Shown: piece after piece, positions 4,195 to 25,958 of the stretch | Position numbering within the stretch: position 1 is the stretch's first letter | Layout: each line of letters starts with the position of its first letter | From: Alphaproteobacteria bacterium | GTDB lineage: Bacteria; Pseudomonadota; Alphaproteobacteria; Rs-D84 | Reading direction: 5' to 3' | Length of the DNA stretch: 64,000 nucleotides | Assembly (NCBI GenBank): GCA_017472065.1 | Contig: JAFURB010000010.1 | Coordinates: 270 to 64,269, forward strand | Translations under genes and position numbers: made by a program | Notes under the pieces: generated by a model | Told to the model about the DNA's origin: nothing | Databases searched by the model: none | The model's input: only the letters and a program-made list of their open reading frames with translations

Positions 4195-6079
4195 TAAAAA
4201 CCTGAACAACACGATGAAAAAACGCGATCGGTCTGGATGGTTCTTGGGATTATTTGCAGTTTTGTTTGTTATGGTGGTTGGGCGCGCATTTTTAATTGGT
4301 GGTGCACCGATGATTGGGATGCAAAACAATATGTCTGCGAATCAACGGGCGACGGTGTTAAACTTTTCCGATGTGTTGCGTCGTGCAGATGATATTCAAA
4401 CCATGGAAATTCGCGGTAATGATGCGCGTGGCGTATTAAAAGACGGCACAAAATACACCGCAACAATTACATATGACCCAGAATTATTAACCAAAATTTC
4501 TGAATCTGGGGCAAATGTTTCGATTGATTCATCACGCGGTTTTGTCGATGTATTGGGAACATGGTTGCCGATTGTTATTGGGTTGTTCTTTATATGGTGG
4601 ATTTTCCGTGGTTTGCGTGGCGGGCCGGCCGGTGGCATTGGTCGCAGTCTGGTAAATCAAAACCCAACCAAAATTACAACAGGCAAACCAGGCACAACAT
4701 TCAAAGATGTGGCCGGTATCGATTCAGAAAAACAGGAATTGGCGGAAATTGTCGATTTCCTGCGGAACAAGGATAAATACCAAAGTGTTGGCGCACGTGT
4801 TCCGCGTGGTGTTCTGTTGTCGGGCGAACCGGGTACGGGTAAAACATTGCTGGCCCGTGCCATCGCAGGCGAAGCAAATGTACCGTTCTTTGCAACATCG
4901 GGATCTGATTTTTCTGGGATTATTGTAGGGCTGGGGGTTGCCAAGATTAAAGAGATGTTTGAAATGGCAAAACGCAACGCGCCATGCATTTTATTCATCG
5001 ACGAAATCGATGCAATCGGTCAAAGACGCAGTGCACACTCGTTCAATGACCAAGATCGCGAACAAACATTGAATCAATTACTGATTGAAATGGACGGATT
5101 TGCAAATAATACAGGTATCATTGTTATCGGGGCAACAAATCGTCCAGATATGCTGGATTCGGCACTGTTGCGCCCAGGCCGCTTTGACCGCCAGGTTCAT
5201 ATTGAATTACCAGACATGGCGGGCCGAAACGAGATATTAAAACTGTATGCGGGACGTGTCAAAATGGATACGGATGTAAACCTGCACGATGTGGCGCGCG
5301 GAACAACCGGTTTTTCAGGCGCAGATTTGGAAAATCTGTTGAACGAAGCGGCACTGCACGCGGTGCGTCATGGTCGCAAAGAAATTTCACCAATTGATAT
5401 CGAAGAAGCGCGTGACAAGATTATCATGGGACCACGTAAATTACGAAAAATGCGCCCAGAAGACATTAAACTGACCGCATATCACGAAGCGGGCCATGCG
5501 TTCGTTAGCATGATATATTCCGATGTCACAGATCCAATTCACAAGGCGACAATTATTCCACGTGGTCGCGCGTTGGGGATGGTTCAGCATCTGCCAATTG
5601 ATGACAAGGTTTCAATGACCCTGGCCGAGGTTCGTGCCAACCTGGCAATCGCATTGGCCGGACGCAGTGCCGAAGAATTATTCTTTGGCGCAGATAAAAT
5701 CACCACCGGCGCAGAAAGCGACATCGCAATGGCGACACGTCTGGCACGCTATTCAATCACAACGGCGGGATTGTCGAATAAACTGGGGCTGGCGGCGATT
5801 AATCAGGTGTCTGCAATTGGCACGCGTGGCGCGCTGGAAAACGCATCAGAAAAAACCGCAGAAATGGTTGATGCGGAAATACGTTCATGGCTTGACACGG
5901 CACACAAGGATGCGACCAAGTTATTAACAAAAAATCGCAAGACCGTAGAAAAATTAGCAACAGAATTGCTGAACCGTGAAACATTAACAGGCGACGAAAT
6001 CCGTGAAATTGTTTTCGGCAAGAAAAAGAACACACCTAAGAAGACATCAAAAAAATCTGATGCAAAGTCCAAGAAATAA
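4157..6079 (+). CDS. ftsH: ATP-dependent zinc metalloprotease FtsH
   Basis: Walker [15 protein letters not shown] second region of homology, zinc motif HEAGHA, N-terminal TM segments. The start could also be ATG 4214. Confidence 0.96.
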
Positions 6080-17740: not shown

Positions 17741-17810
17741 TTGATTTTTATGTCGTTTTATGATATAATATTCTGTATCAACACCGCCGTATGTGGCGGT
17801 GTTTTTTTTT
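17741..17810 (+). promoter_or_regulatory. Sigma70-type promoter immediately followed by an intrinsic terminator
   Basis: TTGATT(17741-46)-17 nt-TGATATAAT(-10 at 17764-69), then ACACCGCC-N6-GGCGGTGT plus T9 (17781-17810), 44 nt before the next ATG. Confidence 0.5.
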
Positions 17811-17853
17811 ACAGCTAATAAATCTTTTATATAAAACCTTAAGGAAATATATT

Positions 17854-18432
17854 ATGTCAAAAATTCTGCAAGTGCGGCGCGGTTCAACCGATGCCAATAA
17901 TAATTTTACCGGGATGCCGGGGGAACTGTCATTTGATACAGATAAAAAAACATTACGCGTACATGATGGCGAAACACTGGGCGGATTTGAATTGTTACGC
18001 ACAGACCAAAATTCATCCAGCGGTGATGGCACATTTGATATAACAAGTGTATCAGATGAATTCTGGGCCGAAACCATTGCGCGTTTCGCACCGGCACCAT
18101 TTACAATCCTGACCAGTCCCCAGATGAAGGTAAAAAGCACTGTTCCATCAACCGAGTGTATTTTCGATACCGTCAGCAAAGAACCAGCCTTTGTTCGTGT
18201 AATGCTGATATGCCAATCACCGGATGCCGGATATGCAATCGGCGACACGGTTTATGCATTTGGTATCGGCAATCGCACAAACCCAACACCAAACATATGG
18301 ACCGACGATAACGGCGTGCATGTACAATTAATGATTGGTAATGAACAATTCTGGGTCAGTCACAAAGACACCGGCACACAAACAAACATTGTGCCAGAAA
18401 ACTGGCGTTTATTATTCCGAGTTTACTGTTGA
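17854..18432 (+). CDS. Phage tail-fibre N-terminal-domain protein (Mtd_N / hyaluronidase-like motif)
   Basis: MSKILQVRRGSTDANNNFTGMPGELSFDTDKKTLRVHDGETLGG matches the (I/L)Q(L/V)RRG...GEL..DTD...L(K/R)(I/V)GDG opening of many phage fibre/tropism proteins. RBS AAGGAAA. Confidence 0.6.
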   Translation: MSKILQVRRGSTDANNNFTGMPGELSFDTDKKTLRVHDGETLGGFELLRTDQNSSSGDGTFDITSVSDEFWAETIARFAPAPFTILTSPQMKVKSTVPSTECIFDTVSKEPAFVRVMLICQSPDAGYAIGDTVYAFGIGNRTNPTPNIWTDDNGVHVQLMIGNEQFWVSHKDTGTQTNIVPENWRLLFRVYC

Positions 18433-18486: not shown

Positions 18487-19728
18487 ATGTACATACTTGC
18501 ACTGAACTGTGGTTCATCTTCATTAAAATATCAGGTTTTTGACGCGGATTCTAAACAGGCAATCGTCGGCGGTAATGTCGAAAAGATTGGTTTGCCAGAT
18601 TCTTTTGTCACACAGAAATATCCAGATGGCACAAAACAGAAAAAAGAAACATCTATGCAGAATCATAACGAAGCATTAAATGTTGTTCTGTTTATGTTGC
18701 GCGAAGCATCAATTGATTTGAACGAAATCAAGGGTGTTGGTCATCGCGTCGTTATGGGTGGCGACAAATTCGCATCATCTGTTGAAATTAACGACGAAGT
18801 TATCAAAACAATTGATGAATTGTCGGCAATTGCGCCACTGCATAATCCATCTGCGCTGATGGGTATTGTTACCGCGAAACAGTTATTGCCAAACGCAACC
18901 CAGGTCGCTGTGTTTGACACTGCGTTCCACCAGACAATGCCAGATTATGCATACCGCTATGCGGTGCCAAGTGCATGGTATCGTGAATTAGGCGTTCGTC
19001 GTTATGGGTTCCATGGAACGTCACATTTGTATGTTTCAAAACGCGCGGCAAAAATGCTGGGCAAACCGGCCAACGAATGCAACCTGATTACATTACATAT
19101 TGGTTCGGGCGCGTCGGCCACGGCAATTCGCAACGGTGTTTCCGTAGATACATCTTTGGGTATGACACCATTGGCCGGATTGACAATGGGTACACGTCCA
19201 GGTGACCTGGATCCGGGTGTTGTTTTGTATGTTATGAACCGTTTGGGCATTAACGCAGACCAAATGCAAAAACACTTGAACAAAGATTCAGGGCTGATGG
19301 GTATTACAGAATGCTTTGCCGATCGTCGCGATGTCGAAGGTAACAAAGACGAAAACGACCTGTGCCGCTTGGCCATTGATATGGAAGCACACAATGTAAA
19401 AAAATACATCGGTGCATTTATGGCTGAATTGGGACATGTTGATGCGCTGGTATTTACCGCCGGCGTTGGCGAAAACGACGATTATCTGCGCGAAAAATTC
19501 TGTGAAGGTTTGGAAGAATTGGGCATAAAATTAGACAAAGAAAAAAATGCAGTTGCCCTGGCACGCAAAGGTGTTGACCAAGCCGTTATCAGCACAGATG
19601 ACAGTCGCGTCAAGATTTTGATGATTGCAACAAACGAAGAATTGGTAATTGTCGAAGACACATTGGCAATTATGAACGGCACATACAATCCAGATCATTT
19701 GAAAATGGATTATTCGTTTGTAAAATAA
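18487..19728 (+). CDS. ackA: Acetate kinase
   Basis: MYILALNCGSSSLKYQVFD N-terminus and collinear acetate/propionate kinase sequence. Start moved to ATG 18487. Confidence 0.94.
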   Translation: MYILALNCGSSSLKYQVFDADSKQAIVGGNVEKIGLPDSFVTQKYPDGTKQKKETSMQNHNEALNVVLFMLREASIDLNEIKGVGHRVVMGGDKFASSVEINDEVIKTIDELSAIAPLHNPSALMGIVTAKQLLPNATQVAVFDTAFHQTMPDYAYRYAVPSAWYRELGVRRYGFHGTSHLYVSKRAAKMLGKPANECNLITLHIGSGASATAIRNGVSVDTSLGMTPLAGLTMGTRPGDLDPGVVLYVMNRLGINADQMQKHLNKDSGLMGITECFADRRDVEGNKDENDLCRLAIDMEAHNVKKYIGAFMAELGHVDALVFTAGVGENDDYLREKFCEGLEELGIKLDKEKNAVALARKGVDQAVISTDDSRVKILMIATNEELVIVEDTLAIMNGTYNPDHLKMDYSFVK

Positions 19729-19735
19729 AACACAT

Positions 19736-19766
19736 AAAAATCCCGCCAAATGGCGGGATTTTTTTA
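19736..19766. terminator. Bidirectional intrinsic terminator
   Basis: AAAAATCCCGCC-AAAT-GGCGGGATTTTTTT between convergent ackA and the XRE gene. Confidence 0.75.
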
Positions 19767-19994
19767 TTTATTAACTTTATGATAGTTTTTCGCCCACATC
19801 ATGTTACAAGCTTCGACAAATATTTTGCGTATTAATGTTTCATCGGGTAATATCTGCCCCCTTTCAATCCGTGCCAAAGCATCCCTTGGGATTTTAAGAA
19901 TTTTCGATAAATCCTTGCGACTTAGATGCGCGCTACGCCGTCCACGACGCAATGCATCACCATAGAATCTGGCATCAATTAAAACTACTGTCAT
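19764..19994 (-). CDS. XRE-family helix-turn-helix protein (76 aa)
   Basis: LSRKDLSKILKIPRDALARIERGQILP HTH_XRE-like core. RBS AGGGGGA. Confidence 0.7.
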   Translation of the reverse strand: MTVVLIDARFYGDALRRGRRSAHLSRKDLSKILKIPRDALARIERGQILPDETLIRKIFVEACNMMWAKNYHKVNK

Positions 19995-20004
19995 ATTTCA
20001 TCCC

Positions 20005-20150
20005 CCTTTTTTTTACATAAAAACCGCCATATAAAAGGCGGTTGGAGGCTCAAAACTATTAACAGTAATAGCGTGCTTATTTAGATATATCGCAACCCTC
20101 CAACCTGTGTTGGAGTTTTCTGTTAGAGGTTTTGAGTCCTCGCACCGGAT
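20005..20150 (-). ncRNA. Structured leader/sRNA, copy 1 of a two-member family
   Basis: TTGAAT-17-TATAAT promoter (20184-20156, minus), ~145-nt transcript ending in AACCGCC-N8-GGCGGTT plus U-run. Homologous to 23671..23885 with compensatory changes in helices. Confidence 0.5.
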
Positions 20151-20226
20151 TACCAATGCCCCCACATTATACCGCATAAAAAACAGATATTCAAGTTTGT
20201 TCAAAAAATAAAAATTTTATTATAAA

Positions 20227-21522
20227 TTATTTAATCAAATCGCCGGCCTTGATATATTCGGGGTCGTTTTTTTTCAGGTACTTTTGCGCGCGACGCGCAT
20301 ATTCAACCGATTTATCCGTATCACCACGCATTGCATGATATTCCGCCATCGCCCATGCGTGACGACCAGAATCCGCATCACCATAGCATCGTGCCAAAAC
20401 CCAATACGCCAGTGGAGTCGGTTCCGTCAACACAACATGTTTAGATAACTCAATCGCGCGCGATATATCGCCGGGCTTTTTCCGTTCTGATAAAACCAAT
20501 GCCAGGGCTGTTTCAATCTGGGGCGCGTTATCAATCAGTGACAATGATTTTTCATATGCATGAACACTGTCATCATAATGACCAAACTGATATTCAATAT
20601 CACCCAGCAATTCATAGAAATATCCATTATTTGGATTGCGCGATATTAATGTTTCAACCCCCATGCGCGCACCATCCAGATTTCCCCCACGCATGTTCGC
20701 AATTGCGCGTGCATACAGGGCGGAATCTGATTTATCCGTGTACGGATATTTTGTTAATACCGTCTTTGCATCATCCAAATATCCAATCAGTTTTGCACGC
20801 ACCAATTCATATCGCGCATCGCGCGTGGTGGTATTTGGCGCACGGTAATCGGGCGCATGTTCGGCAATATATTCGCGTGCGTTCTTTAACCGTTCACGGG
20901 TCAGTGGATGATTAATTCGATTTGGATTAATTGTGTTTTCTAATTCGCCGGTTAAATCGTTCATCTGTTCAAAGACAGTTATAAATCCATTTGGATTCTG
21001 GCCAGATTGTATCATTAAATCAATCCCCAGATTATCTGCAATGCGTTCTTCGTCACGGGAAAACGCCAACATCGACTGGGTTGCGACACCCGATGATCCG
21101 GCCAGGACCCCTGCCCCCAGTGATGGATTACCACCGGCGACCATTAATCCGATTCCCAATGCCTGAATCAACATGGTGCGTTTCATTTCGGCATCCATGC
21201 GCGCAGATAATTGTGCCATGTGACCACCAATCGTATGTCCCAATTCATGCGCCACAACCGCAACCAGTGCATCGGGATTCTTTATTTGTTTCAACAGACC
21301 GGTGTAAATAAACACATCTTCGCCACCACGGACAAACGCATTAAAATCATCATCACTGACAATATTTATATTTAACCGGCCACCTGGGATATTGGCCGCC
21401 GTCCCCAGCGGTGCAACCAGTTCTGATAGAAAATGTTCTGTTTCTGTGTCATTAATCAATGTCGCACAAAATGACGGCATCGTTATAAAAAGCGATAACA
21501 AAAGCACACAAAACCTACGCAC
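20227..21522 (-). CDS. M48-family periplasmic metalloprotease with TPR-like C-terminus (BepA/YfgC-like)
   Basis: Signal peptide, HELGHTIGGH zinc motif, helical-repeat C-terminal half. Confidence 0.85.
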   Translation of the reverse strand: MRRFCVLLLSLFITMPSFCATLINDTETEHFLSELVAPLGTAANIPGGRLNINIVSDDDFNAFVRGGEDVFIYTGLLKQIKNPDALVAVVAHELGHTIGGHMAQLSARMDAEMKRTMLIQALGIGLMVAGGNPSLGAGVLAGSSGVATQSMLAFSRDEERIADNLGIDLMIQSGQNPNGFITVFEQMNDLTGELENTINPNRINHPLTRERLKNAREYIAEHAPDYRAPNTTTRDARYELVRAKLIGYLDDAKTVLTKYPYTDKSDSALYARAIANMRGGNLDGARMGVETLISRNPNNGYFYELLGDIEYQFGHYDDSVHAYEKSLSLIDNAPQIETALALVLSERKKPGDISRAIELSKHVVLTEPTPLAYWVLARCYGDADSGRHAWAMAEYHAMRGDTDKSVEYARRAQKYLKKNDPEYIKAGDLIK

Positions 21523-23572
21523 CTTGGATTACCCCACGATTAAATATAAACATTAAATCACGCGTCCAATCATCTGCATCATTATCACGCGCCGCATTTG
21601 CCGCCAATTTGAACAGGTCACGATGTTCACGATAATCTACAAAATGATATTGTATCCAACCACTTTGTCGGGTACCCATTAATTCACCAACACCACGCAT
21701 CATTAAATCTTGTTCGGCAATTATAAAACCATCATCTGTTTCACAAAGGACATCTAAACGCTTTATTCCATCATCAGACAGGTTATTCCCAAATACTAAC
21801 ACGCAATACGATTGCGTGTTGCCGCGACCGACACGCCCACGCAACTGATGTAATGCCGCCAAACCAAATCGTTCTGCGTTTTCAATAACGATAATAGATG
21901 CACGTGGGACATCAATGCCAACCTCTATGACCGTGGTTGCAACCAACATCCGCATATTAGAATTATCGTCGGCAAATTCTTCCATGACGGCGTCACGTTG
22001 TTTTTTGTCCATTTGACCATGAACCAGCCCCGCCGTCGGGAAATATTCGCACAGCATTTTATGCCGTTCAACAACCGCCGTCATGTTTGTGTCAACATTT
22101 TCAGATTCTTCGACCAGGGGACACACCCAGAAAACCTTGGCCCCGGTGGAAATTTGTGTTTGCAGGCGCGCAACCAATTCATTTATTCGCATCATTGGCA
22201 GTTTTGTCGTCTTAATTGGTTTGCGACCGGCAGGCTTTTCATTAATAATCGAAACATCCATGTCGCCATAGATTGTCATCGATAAAGTTCGCGGAATCGG
22301 TGTCGCAGACAATGCCAACAGGTCTGGATTATTCCCTTTTTGTCGCAGGGATTCGCGCTGGGCCACGCCAAATCGATGCTGTTCATCAATAATGACCAAT
22401 CCCAAATCCCGATATTCAACATCCGCAGAAAACAGTGCATGCGTTCCAACGACCAGGCGCGTACGCCCAGATTTTAATGATATTAATTTTTCACGGCGTG
22501 CAACACCTTTGTCACGGCCGGTTAAAATATCACACACAATGCCGATTTTATCGCACATAGGTTTTAGTTTTGCATAATGTTGCTGGGCCAATGTGTCGGT
22601 TGGTGCCAGTAATGCACTGCACGCACCTGTTTCAGCCATTTTTATCGCCGCCGCCAGCGCAACAATCGTTTTACCAGATCCAACATCACCCTGGACCAGG
22701 CGCATCATCGGTACCGGCTTTTGCAGGTCACTAAAAATCTCGTCACAGGTGCGTTGTTGTGCGCCCGTCATTTCAAATGGCAGGGTCGCATAAAATTTAT
22801 CCATTAAATCGTATTTTTTCGGGCGTACAACGCGACGATTCCGGATGTCGGCACGGTTGCGGCGACTGATTACAATTGCCGATTGGTGGGCAAATAATTC
22901 ACAATATGCCAACTTGGCCATATATGTGGCATTTGGCATCAAATCATCGGCAGATGTGGGAAAATGAACATGTTGCATCGCATCAAAAAATTCCAGAATG
23001 CGTTCGTCGGTTTCAAACCGCAATTTATCAGGCAATATTTCAAATATTCTGTCGCGAACATTGGCGAAAACTTTCTGGGTTAATCCTTCGCCTGCGGGAT
23101 AGATTGCCTGAATCGATGGAATCTTGGATGCGTTTTGCATTTCTTCGATAAAGTCAGGATGACTTATCGTTGGGCGCGCGCCACGTTCCAGTTTGCCAGA
23201 AATCATACGCCACGCACCAATTGGTAATTTTTTCAACCAATAATCCAGATAGTTTACATTAAAGAACTGAATCACGACCGTGTTGCCCATTTTGTCGTTA
23301 CATAAAATCTGGGTTGGGCGACGACGACCACGGAAAAAGCCACCTGATTTATGACTTTTGATCAATAACGGAATCGTTATAACATCACCAGGGGTCACAT
23401 CCATAACATTATCTGTTATATCGCGCGCACGAACATATGCCGGACGATGTAACAAGAAATCCAGCACACGGCGCCCACCCAACACATCATCAAAGCGTGC
23501 CGCCAAGACCGGCCCCACCCCCTTGATGAATTGCAGGTCTGTATTCAAAAAATCAATCAGTTCATGTTTCAT
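21515..23572 (-). CDS. recG: ATP-dependent DNA helicase RecG
   Basis: Walker A GDVGSGKT, IIDEQHRFG box, N-terminal wedge region, 685 aa. Confidence 0.95.
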   Translation of the reverse strand: MKHELIDFLNTDLQFIKGVGPVLAARFDDVLGGRRVLDFLLHRPAYVRARDITDNVMDVTPGDVITIPLLIKSHKSGGFFRGRRRPTQILCNDKMGNTVVIQFFNVNYLDYWLKKLPIGAWRMISGKLERGARPTISHPDFIEEMQNASKIPSIQAIYPAGEGLTQKVFANVRDRIFEILPDKLRFETDERILEFFDAMQHVHFPTSADDLMPNATYMAKLAYCELFAHQSAIVISRRNRADIRNRRVVRPKKYDLMDKFYATLPFEMTGAQQRTCDEIFSDLQKPVPMMRLVQGDVGSGKTIVALAAAIKMAETGACSALLAPTDTLAQQHYAKLKPMCDKIGIVCDILTGRDKGVARREKLISLKSGRTRLVVGTHALFSADVEYRDLGLVIIDEQHRFGVAQRESLRQKGNNPDLLALSATPIPRTLSMTIYGDMDVSIINEKPAGRKPIKTTKLPMMRINELVARLQTQISTGAKVFWVCPLVEESENVDTNMTAVVERHKMLCEYFPTAGLVHGQMDKKQRDAVMEEFADDNSNMRMLVATTVIEVGIDVPRASIIVIENAERFGLAALHQLRGRVGRGNTQSYCVLVFGNNLSDDGIKRLDVLCETDDGFIIAEQDLMMRGVGELMGTRQSGWIQYHFVDYREHRDLFKLAANAARDNDADDWTRDLMFIFNRGVIQGA

Positions 23573-23670
23573 ATGCTATAAATTTAGTGAATTTGCGTCT
23601 AATATTCAATAATAAACTTTTTGTTCAGCAAAATGTTGAACCGTTTCAAACTTTCATGTATAATGTGTGT

Positions 23671-23885
23671 GTTATGGTGAATTGCCATAATGGGGTGTCA
23701 AGACCCGTACAATACGCGTTCGAAATAACGGTACAACATGCATGTAGCGTGCCGGGTGTGTTTCGAACGAAAAAACTCCTGATATTTATCGTCAGGAGGG
23801 TTGCGAATATATTGAATAAGCACACAATTCGTATTGATTGTCTTGAACCTCCTGACCACCTGTAAAAGCGGTGGTTTTGTTTTTC
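23671..23885 (+). ncRNA. Structured leader/sRNA, copy 2 of the family
   Basis: TTGAAC(23636-41)-17-TATAAT(23659-64), ~215-nt transcript ending in ACCACC-N9-GGTGGT plus U-run, 22 nt before the ATG at 23908. The 3' ~110 nt aligns to copy 1. Confidence 0.5.
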
Positions 23886-23907
23886 ACAAAACAACAGGAG
23901 TTTAAGA

Positions 23908-24312
23908 ATGAAAAAGATATACATATGCGGATTAGTTAGCACAGTATTAACATTTTGCATAAATCCGTCGCATAAAACATATGCGGCAGATTTCACATCA
24001 ATGAAATGCGTCGCACAAATTGCATCTAATAAAACCAATTGGAATGCAAAATGTGGTAAAATATCCGTCAGTGGAAAATCAACATGTGTAAACATGCCTG
24101 GGGACAAGCCGTATGCGACAACAGGAATATTTCAATTAAGCAATAATAATGACAGGCTGGATTGTTGGTGCAAAATGACATCCCCGAACGAGTCTGCGTG
24201 GATATTTTTAGGTGCATATCCAAGCGCATCAGATTGTGATAATAATTGCATGGATAACTGTGCAGTTCACATGCAATTATCCCAAGAATTTCGCAAAGCA
24301 TTTACACAATAA
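23908..24312 (+). CDS. Secreted cysteine-rich hypothetical protein (134 aa)
   Basis: Signal-peptide-like N-terminus MKKIYICGLVSTVLTFCINPSHKTYA, multiple Cys in the mature part, RBS CAGGAG. Confidence 0.55.
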   Translation: MKKIYICGLVSTVLTFCINPSHKTYAADFTSMKCVAQIASNKTNWNAKCGKISVSGKSTCVNMPGDKPYATTGIFQLSNNNDRLDCWCKMTSPNESAWIFLGAYPSASDCDNNCMDNCAVHMQLSQEFRKAFTQ

Positions 24313-24459
24313 ACAACTGCACAGACACTATAATTATACCAGTTTGCAGATTGTGCATAGCCGTTGTACCATTTGACACGGCTCTAATCAAAAACGCATG
24401 TGTGTGCTTGATTTAGGCCCGTTACACAATTAGATGTTAGCGAAAATTGAAACAGCAAG

Positions 24460-24989: not shown

Positions 24990-25847
24990 TCAATATCTAT
25001 TTGTACGATTTGTCCATCCACGACCATATTTATCCCAATCGGATAAAGTGCGAAGATATTCGATTCTATTTTCTTTTAGGGTATTCATAAAATCATTTAC
25101 TTTATATACTGGTATATCGTTTAGTGCGTTTATCGTATTTTTGCCCATTTTTCCGTCCACTACCAAATTTTCACTCATTGAATCATTCAGTGTTTTTTGA
25201 ACCATCTTGATAACATTTCTAAAATTACTCATAACCCCCATGTCAAATATAGAATTAGATATTCTTGGGATTTTTATTTCGCCTATTTTACGTTCGTCAT
25301 AATAATCTTCTTTATATATTTGTTTTGCGTGCCCGCGTTCTATATCTGCAACTTTTTTCGGAAAATTAAAGTTTGGATGGTCTGCATTGTATTTGTCCAG
25401 TGTCGGTTGGGTTATTCCAAAATTAGTTGGTTGGTCTATCAAATCAGGATTGTCAACATATCCCGCTTCTTCGTCCAATGTCTTTTCCAAAGAATACTCT
25501 TTTATCTGATTTTTTACCAGCTCATCACTATCATCTAATTCTATTTCTTCTATCCAACAACGACAATTTTTATGATGCGGATTTTTTGGAATCTCTTCAA
25601 TGTGTTCATAAATTTTATTTGCAAAACTCAGACATATATCACGTGTTTTATCATCAATCACCGTATGCCACCGCCATGCGGTTCTGATTGTGATATTATG
25701 CCCCGTTGCGTCTGTACGACTGTTGCCATATTTGTTTTCAAAATAATCGTGTACCTGTTTGGCGACAGTAGCGTGGTTGGGATTATTACTGTTTAAATAC
25801 GCGTCGCTGTGCATAAGGGTTAGTATATTATTTGATAATTTATTCAT
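24990..25847 (-). CDS. Phage MuF/SPP1-gp7-like head-morphogenesis domain fused to GH108 muramidase + PG_binding_3-like domain
   Basis: VIDDKTRDICLSFANKIY...PHHKNCRCWIEEI (MuF-type H.NCRC motif), followed by EEAGYVDNP..TNFGITQ..(GH108-like) and GKMGKNTINALN...GRGWTNR (PG-binding-like). Start set to ATG 25847 after AAAGGA. Confidence 0.7.
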   Translation of the reverse strand: MNKLSNNILTLMHSDAYLNSNNPNHATVAKQVHDYFENKYGNSRTDATGHNITIRTAWRWHTVIDDKTRDICLSFANKIYEHIEEIPKNPHHKNCRCWIEEIELDDSDELVKNQIKEYSLEKTLDEEAGYVDNPDLIDQPTNFGITQPTLDKYNADHPNFNFPKKVADIERGHAKQIYKEDYYDERKIGEIKIPRISNSIFDMGVMSNFRNVIKMVQKTLNDSMSENLVVDGKMGKNTINALNDIPVYKVNDFMNTLKENRIEYLRTLSDWDKYGRGWTNRTNRY

Positions 25848-25849
25848 TT

Positions 25850-25958
25850 TTAATCCTTTTGGTATAAAAAACACCCGCGGTGGCGGGGATAAAAAAAGAC
25901 GACAAAATGCCGTCTGTCTGATGTGATGTATTATATCATATATTCCCGTTTTTTTCAA
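25850..25958 (-). promoter_or_regulatory. Sigma70-type promoter followed by two terminator-like hairpins upstream of the MuF-GH108 gene
   Basis: Minus strand: TTGAAA(25958-53)-17-TGATATAAT(-10 at 25935-30), then AGACG-N9-CGTCT+T7 and CCCGC-CACC-GCGGG+TGT6, then AAAGGA RBS and ATG 25847. Confidence 0.45.

Follow-up and report, generated by a model that had tools for sequence, protein, structure and literature searches.

A multi-copy family of probable termination/antitermination leader RNAs upstream of secreted-protein genes in the alphaproteobacterial order Rs-D84

We analyzed a window of 64,000 nucleotides (nt) from an Alphaproteobacteria bacterium of the Rs-D84 lineage (GenBank assembly GCA_017472065.1, contig JAFURB010000010.1, positions 270 to 64,269 of the forward strand), in which two copies of one structured RNA, copy 1 on the minus strand (20194..20017) and copy 2 on the plus strand (23636-23907), each stand directly before a gene, hereafter called the cargo. 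Both copies belong to a large RNA family whose members lie before same-strand genes, have two alternative folds that both covary, and share nucleotides with an intrinsic terminator. The family probably consists of cis-acting, riboswitch-like termination/antitermination leaders, each of which starts from a promoter of its own and decides whether RNA polymerase halts just before the gene.

Copy 2, which lies on the plus strand in all its parts, consists of a promoter, a structured RNA of ~215 nt and a terminator. The sigma-70-type promoter (TTGAAC, 23636-41; 17-nt spacer; TATAAT, 23659-64) scored 10/12 in a consensus scan. The transcript begins with a hairpin, P0 (23671..23691, arms GUUAUGGU / GCCAUAAU), which is present in the minimum free energy (MFE) fold. 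It is followed by a GGGG strand (23692-95) whose partner is CCUC (23848-51), and by the outer helix P1 (UCAAGAC, 23698-704, with GUCUUGA, 23840-46) and the long-range helix P2 (CAAUACG, 23710-16, with CGUAUUG, 23830-36); P1 is supported by covariation, and P2 by covariation and a partner-swap control. Further inside lie the variable long hairpin P3 (23717..23769), whose base CGUC...GACG is conserved and covaries, and the P4 hairpin (23776..23799), in which the strand S1 (CUCCUGA, 23776-82) and, after a loop, the strand S2 (UCAGGAGG, 23792-99; TCAGGAGG as DNA) are paired. The invariant core (23798..23823), GGGUUGCGA-N8-AAUAAGCAC, contains the hairpin HP1 (UGC, 23802-04, with GCA, 23820-22), and a second small hairpin, HP2, can be formed by ACAAU (23824-28) and AUUGU (23837-41), its 3' arm overlapping P1. 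The third strand, S3 (23848..23857; CCTCCTGAC(C) as DNA, CCUCCUGACC as RNA), runs into the intrinsic terminator (23855..23884), ACCACC-N9-GGUGGU followed by UUUUGUUUUU, and the last 2-3 nt of S3 are the base of the terminator stem. The terminator ends 22 nt before the ATG at 23908; the Shine-Dalgarno (SD) sequence of the cargo is CAGGAG (23895-900), and the open reading frame (ORF; 23908-24312) encodes a protein of 134 amino acids (aa) with a signal peptide and many cysteines. A first-pass annotation of this DNA had placed the promoter, the terminator, the three switch strands, the outer helix and an insert helix exactly where we find them; P2, P0 (23671-91) and the local core hairpin HP1 had escaped it. 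It had also described P3 as an extra helix brought in by a ~75-nt insertion. The helix exists, but it is no insertion: P3 is the norm in the family and copy 1 is unusual, as P3 is absent from copy 1 and the other leaders preceding helix-turn-helix (HTH) genes while nearly all remaining members have it.

The block GGGUUGCGA-N8-AAUAAGCAC is common to copy 1 and copy 2, and we searched for this core pattern in one genome per species. At least 115 stretches matched. A covariance model was then built from the relatives and run over the 100 sources harvested, which gave at least 120 matches, including ~17 with a diverged core that the pattern had not picked. The element is present in at least 54 assemblies, and the two richest single metagenome-assembled genomes (MAGs) hold at least 14 and at least 13 copies, respectively. 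In the window, the model matched copy 2 with 170 bits and copy 1 with 40 bits (E ~3e-9), and nothing beyond these two. Apart from three chance matches and one contig labelled Bacteroides fragilis, the matches listed come from MAGs of gut origin that carry the label Candidatus Enterousia, Alphaproteobacteria or 'Rickettsiales'. Almost all matches thus point to the order Rs-D84 ('Candidatus Enterousia') of the Alphaproteobacteria as the host of the family. Rs-D84 genomes measure ~0.75-1 Mb (PMC12306168). A recent local duplication of two loci, with the similarity limited to them, had been named as what would speak against a regulatory RNA; it is ruled out by the recurrence of the same architecture across these matches and assemblies.

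The position of the element is equally constant. Behind 104 of 104 parsed copies lies a same-strand ORF with an SD sequence, usually 20-50 nt past the U-run. The cargo proteins fall into 22 unrelated clusters, and nearly all of them have a signal peptide and many cysteines. Pfam returned for the cargo no family, or just weak Ephrin_rec_like or Flg_new matches. For the 134-aa protein of the window, Pfam gave no family and a word-based search for homologues found only one cluster, 98% identical. This protein belongs to the largest cargo cluster, whose 30 members have a common signal peptide and cysteine pattern, diverge very fast and occur as many paralogues per genome; by these features the cluster resembles a variable surface or secreted protein family. 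Eight proteins of 72-95 aa, including the cargo of copy 1, make up the HTH cluster. The first-pass annotation had left the choice between a dedicated regulatory RNA class and two paralogous small RNAs (sRNAs) whose terminators abut the next genes; the number of matches and genomes, the invariable position before a same-strand ORF and the diversity of the cargo favour the dedicated class over the paralogous pair.

Across the family, the elements follow one another in the same order from 5' to 3': promoter, P0, GGGG, P1 5' strand, a linker of 3-5 nt, P2 5' strand and P3; then an A-rich linker, S1, loop, S2, the core with HP1, ACAAU, P2 3' strand and AUU; and finally P1 3' strand, S3, terminator, SD sequence and ORF. 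In 65 of 98 members, a TATAAT box keeps a fixed distance from P1 (-38 to -40). At the position of P0, a stable hairpin was found in 97% of leaders and in 29% of shuffles, and its arms have more than 50 different sequences. A hairpin and a U-run follow S3 in 96 of 98 members (median stem energy, -7.9 kcal/mol). The core is near-invariant over the at least 120 matches, including 17 outside the pattern selection. Specifically, the junction strands and the 15-nt loop of HP1 are nearly invariant while the helices drift, which looks like the usual signature of a binding pocket. The strands S1, S2 and S3 exist as only two alleles over more than 100 copies, whereas P1 and P2 drift: the AAC allele (CUCCAAC/GUUGGAGG/CCUCCAAC) and the TGA allele (CUCCUGA/UCAGGAGG/CCUCCUGAC). 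The alleles differ by a substitution and one inserted base pair, in all three strands, and the remaining variation is wobble-compatible.

We considered whether the conserved sequence could encode a peptide. In such a ribosome-mediated attenuator, S2 (AGGAGG) would serve as an SD sequence for a short ORF starting at the UUG of the core, and translation through P2, P1 and S3 would decide on the terminator. S2 is indeed strongly SD-like with a UUG ~12 nt downstream, and copy 2 would yield a 17-codon ORF ending in the terminator loop. However, the UUG is found in just 69 of 98 copies, the resulting ORFs range from 7 to more than 49 codons with scattered stops, and single-nucleotide changes in the length of P2 shift the frame. 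Two of the three reading frames are interrupted by stop codons within the invariant core, none stays open in the majority of copies, and substitutions are compensatory in helices rather than codon-like. A leader peptide is thus highly improbable, and coding potential is largely refuted, given that there is no conserved short ORF with SD sequence, start and fixed stop; the peptide-coding frame that the first-pass annotation had held up as a counter-case was not found in the family.

The evidence for two folds comes from covariation. MAFFT alone mis-registers P2 and, in the AAC type, S2:S3; hence we used a separate covariance model for each fold, the second being built on fold B since the fold-A alignment mis-registers the shorter AAC-type S3. 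Fold A is composed of P1 with its GGGG:CCUC extension, P2, the base of P3 and the S1:S2 hairpin, and leaves the terminator free. In the model alignment of 120 sequences, standard pairs occupied 97.6% of its cells and 27 of 33 pairs had changed on both sides. The covariation score of fold A was 0.509, compared with 0.146 for shuffled partners (0 of 500 shuffles reached the observed value) and at most 0.045 when partners were slid by 1-3 columns. The outer helix (P1 and GGGG:CCUC) was paired in 99.6% of cells with both-side changes in 8 of 11 pairs, and P2 in 99.1% with both-side changes in all 7 of its pairs; up to four Watson-Crick pair types occur at a single position of P1 and of P2, which bears out the earlier proposal that the outer helix covaries. 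In an alignment-independent control, a P2 helix of at least 6 base pairs (bp) formed in 92 of 98 leaders, as against ~7% after the 3' strand had been swapped for that of another copy. The S1:S2 helix was paired in 98.7% of cells. RNAalifold, which predicts a structure independently, arrived at P1, P2, the base of P3, S1:S2 and HP1 as well; of its 29 pairs, 24 were compensated. As for single sequences, both window copies fold better than 200 of 200 dinucleotide shuffles (z = -4.5 and -5.6).

Fold B is composed of S2:S3 over 9-10 bp and HP2 in place of P1 and P2. The two folds are mutually exclusive because the loop of HP2 is the P2 3' strand and the 3' arm of HP2 overlaps P1; HP1 is compatible with both. 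Pairs formed in 97.8% of the fold-B cells, and the covariation score was 0.220, compared with 0.087 for shuffled and at most 0.064 for slid partners. S2:S3 was paired in 96.9% of cells with 5 pairs changed on both sides, HP1 had both-side changes in 3 of 3 pairs, and one HP2 pair covaried (A-U 87, U-A 25). The earlier claim that all three strands had changed together (AAC versus TGA) therefore stands for the whole family, S1:S2 and S2:S3 being paired in ~97-99% of cells. Note that this three-strand covariation is essentially one deep event plus wobble-compatible changes, and that the very strong covariation, from many events, sits in P1 and P2.

The switch strands meet the terminator at S3. 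In fold A, the CCUC of S3 pairs with GGGG, and in fold B, all 10 nt of S3 pair with S2. In the TGA type, position 8 of S3 (CCUCCUGACC) is the first nucleotide of the terminator stem; in the AAC type, the stem begins at positions 5-7. This indicates that S2:S3 pairing removes the 2-4 G-C pairs that adjoin the U-run. Constrained folding gave fold A with the terminator as the MFE structure in 86 of 96 leaders, and fold B was less stable than fold A by ~7 kcal/mol once S3 emerges and by ~11 kcal/mol in the full transcript. Since fold A is far more stable, the predicted default is termination, and read-through would need an input.

From these features, we infer that termination is regulated, as well as the direction of the switch and the kind of effector, as follows. 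Fold A would be the ground state, a stalk (GGGG:CCUC, P1 and P2) carrying a four-way junction of P2, P3, the S1:S2 hairpin and HP1. In this state, S1 would hold S2 and GGGG would hold the 5' part of S3, leaving the S3 tail to complete the short terminator, and the gene would be OFF. In fold B, S2 would take all of S3 (9-10 bp) and HP2 would replace P1 and P2, so that the terminator would lose its 2-4 basal G-C pairs and the polymerase would read through the weakened terminator into the cargo, turning the gene ON. S1:S2 would thus act as anti-antiterminator, S2:S3 as antiterminator, and the S3 tail with the downstream strand as terminator, while the clamp made of P1, P2 and GGGG:CCUC would couple the decision to the conserved junction. 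An effector would shift the balance between the folds, and a dozen or more genes for secreted, cysteine-rich proteins would be co-regulated with one HTH regulator per genome. Given the binding-pocket-like conservation, we favour as effector a small molecule or second messenger that would bind at the conserved junction, and a dedicated RNA-binding protein is the next candidate.

With a protein as effector, the cis-attenuator core would be the same and the effector alone would differ: an RNA-binding protein would recognize the invariant HP1 loop and the junction and either stabilize fold B or keep the RNA locked in fold A, much as in the systems of BglG/SacY with its ribonucleic antiterminator (RAT) sites, PyrR or ANTAR proteins. 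Fold B is weaker by 7-11 kcal/mol, so outside stabilization is needed, and the invariant 15-nt HP1 loop with its flanks is what would be expected of a sequence-specific protein site; furthermore, the regulon is made of secreted proteins with no obvious metabolic pathway, and a small HTH gene belongs to it as a conserved member. On the other hand, no candidate RNA-binding protein was identified in this analysis, the HTH cargo is of the DNA-binding type, and an elaborate, covarying four-way junction with conserved joining strands resembles the aptamer of a small molecule more closely than it does a simple hairpin bound by a protein. On balance, we regard a protein effector as rather doubtful.

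Several points weigh against a riboswitch-like leader. The cargo genes hold no metabolic clue to a ligand. The support for fold B comes from few independent events, because S1, S2 and S3 have two alleles only, a single HP2 pair covaries and variants of HP1 are rare; moreover, each alignment was fitted to the structure of its own model. The overlap between S2:S3 and the terminator is just 2-4 nt, and the outermost S2:S3 pair is unformed in 31 of 114 sequences. Given the computed stability of fold A, fold B may rarely be formed without help. Finally, the terminated leader of ~200 nt would be an abundant RNA that could act in trans.

The last point leads to the alternative of multi-copy sibling sRNAs acting in trans, with the downstream genes expressed just by incidental read-through. 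The anti-SD stretches CCUCC/CUCCUGA of S1 and S3 would then pair with ribosome-binding sites, or S2 with the S3 of other copies. Each copy does have its own promoter and terminator, the persistence of two S1/S2/S3 alleles while P1 and P2 drift is what would be expected of a sequence read in trans, and sRNA-Xcc1, which comes nearest among the Rfam families, is itself described as an sRNA that acts in trans. In addition, 30 of 76 TGA-type leaders and 0 of 22 AAC-type leaders have, in the SD region of the cargo (e.g., window 23895-23900), the sequence CAGGAG, a mimic of S2 that is complementary to the CUCCUG of S1 and S3. However, the reciprocal signal of the AAC type is weak (UGGAG in the SD region of 2 of 22 leaders), and the candidate seeds S1 and S3 are paired and unexposed in the dominant fold. 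Besides, each of the 104 copies stands immediately 5' of a same-strand ORF, and the gap is too short to accommodate a separate promoter. An RNA that acts only in trans would also hardly account for two conserved, mutually exclusive folds around a terminator. In the window, the consensus scan of 19700-24400 ranked the leader promoters of copy 1 and copy 2 as the top two promoter-like sites (10/12 each) and found no plus-strand promoter-like site between the leader and the ATG at 23908. We therefore consider sibling sRNAs unlikely. The two S alleles and the CAGGAG signal do hint that terminated leaders may also act in trans. Under the termination/antitermination reading, the CAGGAG of the SD region may be a fourth, translational strand, a hint that applies to the TGA type only.

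Next, we compared the family with known RNAs. At gathering score, Rfam returned nothing but tRNAs and transfer-messenger RNA for the whole window and 18 family loci; the RNA described here reached none of its 4227 families. In permissive scans, copy 1 gave a sub-threshold sRNA-Xcc1 match only and copy 2 gave noise. Neither Rfam 15 nor the searchable literature on Enterousia/Rs-D84, in which we found no paper on RNA elements, yielded a description of this RNA; the family is apparently undescribed and, by its general kind, belongs with the known leaders of the attenuator and riboswitch type. Like these, it occupies a 5' untranslated region and has a conserved junction with covarying helices and invariant joining strands, a shared strand (S2) with two possible partners, and a terminator overlapping the alternative helix in silico. 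Its strand logic resembles that of regions 1:2, 2:3 and 3:4 of the trp attenuator. It differs in having no Rfam match at gathering score, no leader peptide, a terminator overlap as short as 2-4 nt and a gene set without metabolic hint. Its copy number in a ~1-Mb genome, a cargo that is a secretome and not a metabolic pathway, and covariation for both folds are unusual. In some bacteria, cyclic diguanosine monophosphate (c-di-GMP) riboswitches occur in many copies per genome before genes for surface or secreted proteins, and the family described here has the same many-copy pattern.

Tandem arrangement is also known for riboswitches. At locus L069, two complete leaders (4575-4709 and 4791-4927) lie in tandem before a single signal-peptide ORF (ATG ~4978). 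Each of them has a terminator, a P0 and a promoter-like box of its own, and in the second leader S2 and S3 are partly degenerate. We counted this arrangement toward the riboswitch-like reading.

The closest Rfam entry, sRNA-Xcc1 (RF02221), is an ~88-nt RNA of integron cassettes and prophages. Its model gave copy 1 35.4 bits (E = 9e-5), below the gathering score of 53, and no match to copy 2 at E <=10; 0 of 18 AAC-type loci passed the gathering score. For comparison, we used a genuine sRNA-Xcc1 from E. coli EDL933, which scores 69 bits, and diverged ones from the phages phi191, STEC801 and VHML. Both RNAs share a three-way topology, that of the 3' domain of fold B, in which a G-rich closing helix encloses two hairpins. 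Xcc1 is, however, without the 5' domain (P1-P4), its interior sequences are unrelated, and its cargo and host lineage differ. Its conserved interior (hairpin-1 loop and UUUGAG joining strand) is not matched, the joining strand being here the variable P1 3' strand, and the fold-B model recovered only the closing helix of true Xcc1 (12 bits, E = 0.07). Membership in sRNA-Xcc1 is thus not demonstrable, and what relates the two RNAs is their topology and genomic position. We also rejected a three-strand switch of the same kind in Xcc1, as its upstream S1-like strand does not covary.

As for Xcc1 itself, genuine copies (L127:6620-6708 on the minus strand in E. coli EDL933; L128, L129 and L130) lie 25-40 nt upstream of antirepressor (Ant/Rha) genes in Shiga toxin (Stx) phages and the Vibrio phage VHML. 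For the EDL933 copy, the gene is a prophage Ant gene at a distance of ~40 nt. In these copies, the closing helix continues into a hairpin followed by U's. The closing helix covaries between the E. coli phages and VHML, and Xcc1 is multi-copy in some genomes. These loci are thus leader-like too, and the label of Xcc1 as a trans-acting sRNA may overlook a role as a cis-leader.

A further likeness is to the c4 antisense RNA of phages P1 and P7 and to IsrK of Salmonella, which, according to Citron and Schuster in 1990 and later work, are reportedly leader-embedded RNAs of prophage immunity regions. In c4, two identical stretches, one on either side, are said to be complementary to a single element between them (a1b1 / a'b' / a2b2 in phage P1). 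The family shares with c4 and IsrK the triple complementarity, the discrete 'specificity' alleles and the embedding in the leader of the controlled genes. In contrast to c4/IsrK, where the downstream strand covers the ribosome-binding site, S3 lies upstream of and abuts an intrinsic terminator, away from the ribosome-binding site, although the SD region of 30 of 76 TGA-type leaders (0 of 22 AAC-type leaders) contains CAGGAG, to which S1 and S3 are complementary; the family also stands outside the prophage immunity context and has a large extra 5' sensor-like domain. The Rfam C4 model gave no match, and isrK scored 13.3 bits (E = 1.3; gathering score, 50). By analogy with the heteroimmune c4 alleles of phages P1 and P7, the AAC and TGA alleles could be two orthogonal specificity channels, in which the S2 of a terminated leader would pair in trans with the nascent S3 of the same allele, and such channels could lead to regulon-wide feed-forward antitermination.

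The proposed leaders would have several consequences if true. A single RNA architecture would account for a large share of the regulatory capacity of genomes of ~0.75-1 Mb (PMC12306168), and the governed proteins would be those likely to mediate contact with hosts or partner cells. Rs-D84 is an uncultured, genome-reduced and probably partner-dependent gut lineage, and the signal that it senses would be testable on cloned RNA without cultivation. The orphan riboswitch-like leaders would be joined by a large class of more than 100 members, in which covariation is very strong and two alternative folds are conserved. More tentatively, most of the Rs-D84 secretome might be governed by a riboswitch class, or a kind of RNA sensor, that is new in itself and responds to a signal for which sensing by RNA is not yet known (e.g., a host- or partner-derived metabolite, or a second messenger), although we would put this below an even chance. 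RNAs of the sRNA-Xcc1 type from prophages and integrons, so far regarded as trans-acting sRNAs, merit re-examination as leaders of the genes immediately downstream.

Copy 1 is a short AAC-type leader without P3, and all its elements lie on the minus strand. Its promoter (20194-20166) is followed by P0 (20159-42), a GAGG strand (20141-38), P1 (20136-29 with 20056-49) and P2 (20125-20 with 20065-60), between the arms of which lie S1 (CTCCAAC, 20115-09), S2 (20105-097; GTTGGAGG = 20104-097) and the core (20098-073). S3 (20048-40; CCTCCAAC = 20048-41) runs into the terminator (20043-22) and its U-run. The cargo (19764..19994) is a 76-aa XRE-type HTH protein (Pfam HTH_3, E = 1e-6), and orthologous HTH proteins of 72-95 aa stand behind AAC-type leaders at 8 loci. 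Between the HTH gene and the convergent acetate kinase gene, a perfect 12-bp hairpin flanked by an A-run and a T-run (window 19736-19763) is, by its sequence, a putative bidirectional terminator.

The apical part of P3 varies among leaders. In 28 of 98, it is a perfect, GC-rich hairpin with an A-tract before and at least 5 U's after it (e.g., L032:5531-5728, L053 and L027; within L013-L126), resembling an intrinsic terminator; the P3 of copy 2 differs and has no such module.

Some occurrences lie on contigs of other labels. The contig labelled Bacteroides fragilis (L051, CAVGNU010000002.1) carries a typical TGA-type leader with a cysteine-rich cargo, near-identical to those of two Alphaproteobacteria MAGs (L063 and L067), and is most likely mis-binned rather than a true occurrence outside Rs-D84. 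An AAC-type leader with a 316-aa signal-peptide cargo was found at L009:12038-12175 and in L011, both IMG/VR contigs classified as viral.

The surroundings of the two window copies are ordinary chromosome, with genes for acetate kinase, an M48/TPR peptidase, RecG and RRF, and a few phage-like genes nearby. Phage-like genes flank both leaders (window 17791-18432, plus strand, and 24990-25958, minus strand). One of the flanking phage-like proteins has an Mtd_N (major tropism determinant) N-terminal domain, and another has GH108 and PG_binding_3 domains with a weak Mu-F match. In a related contig (L003:3147-3518), an integrase gene lies a few genes away from the same cargo.

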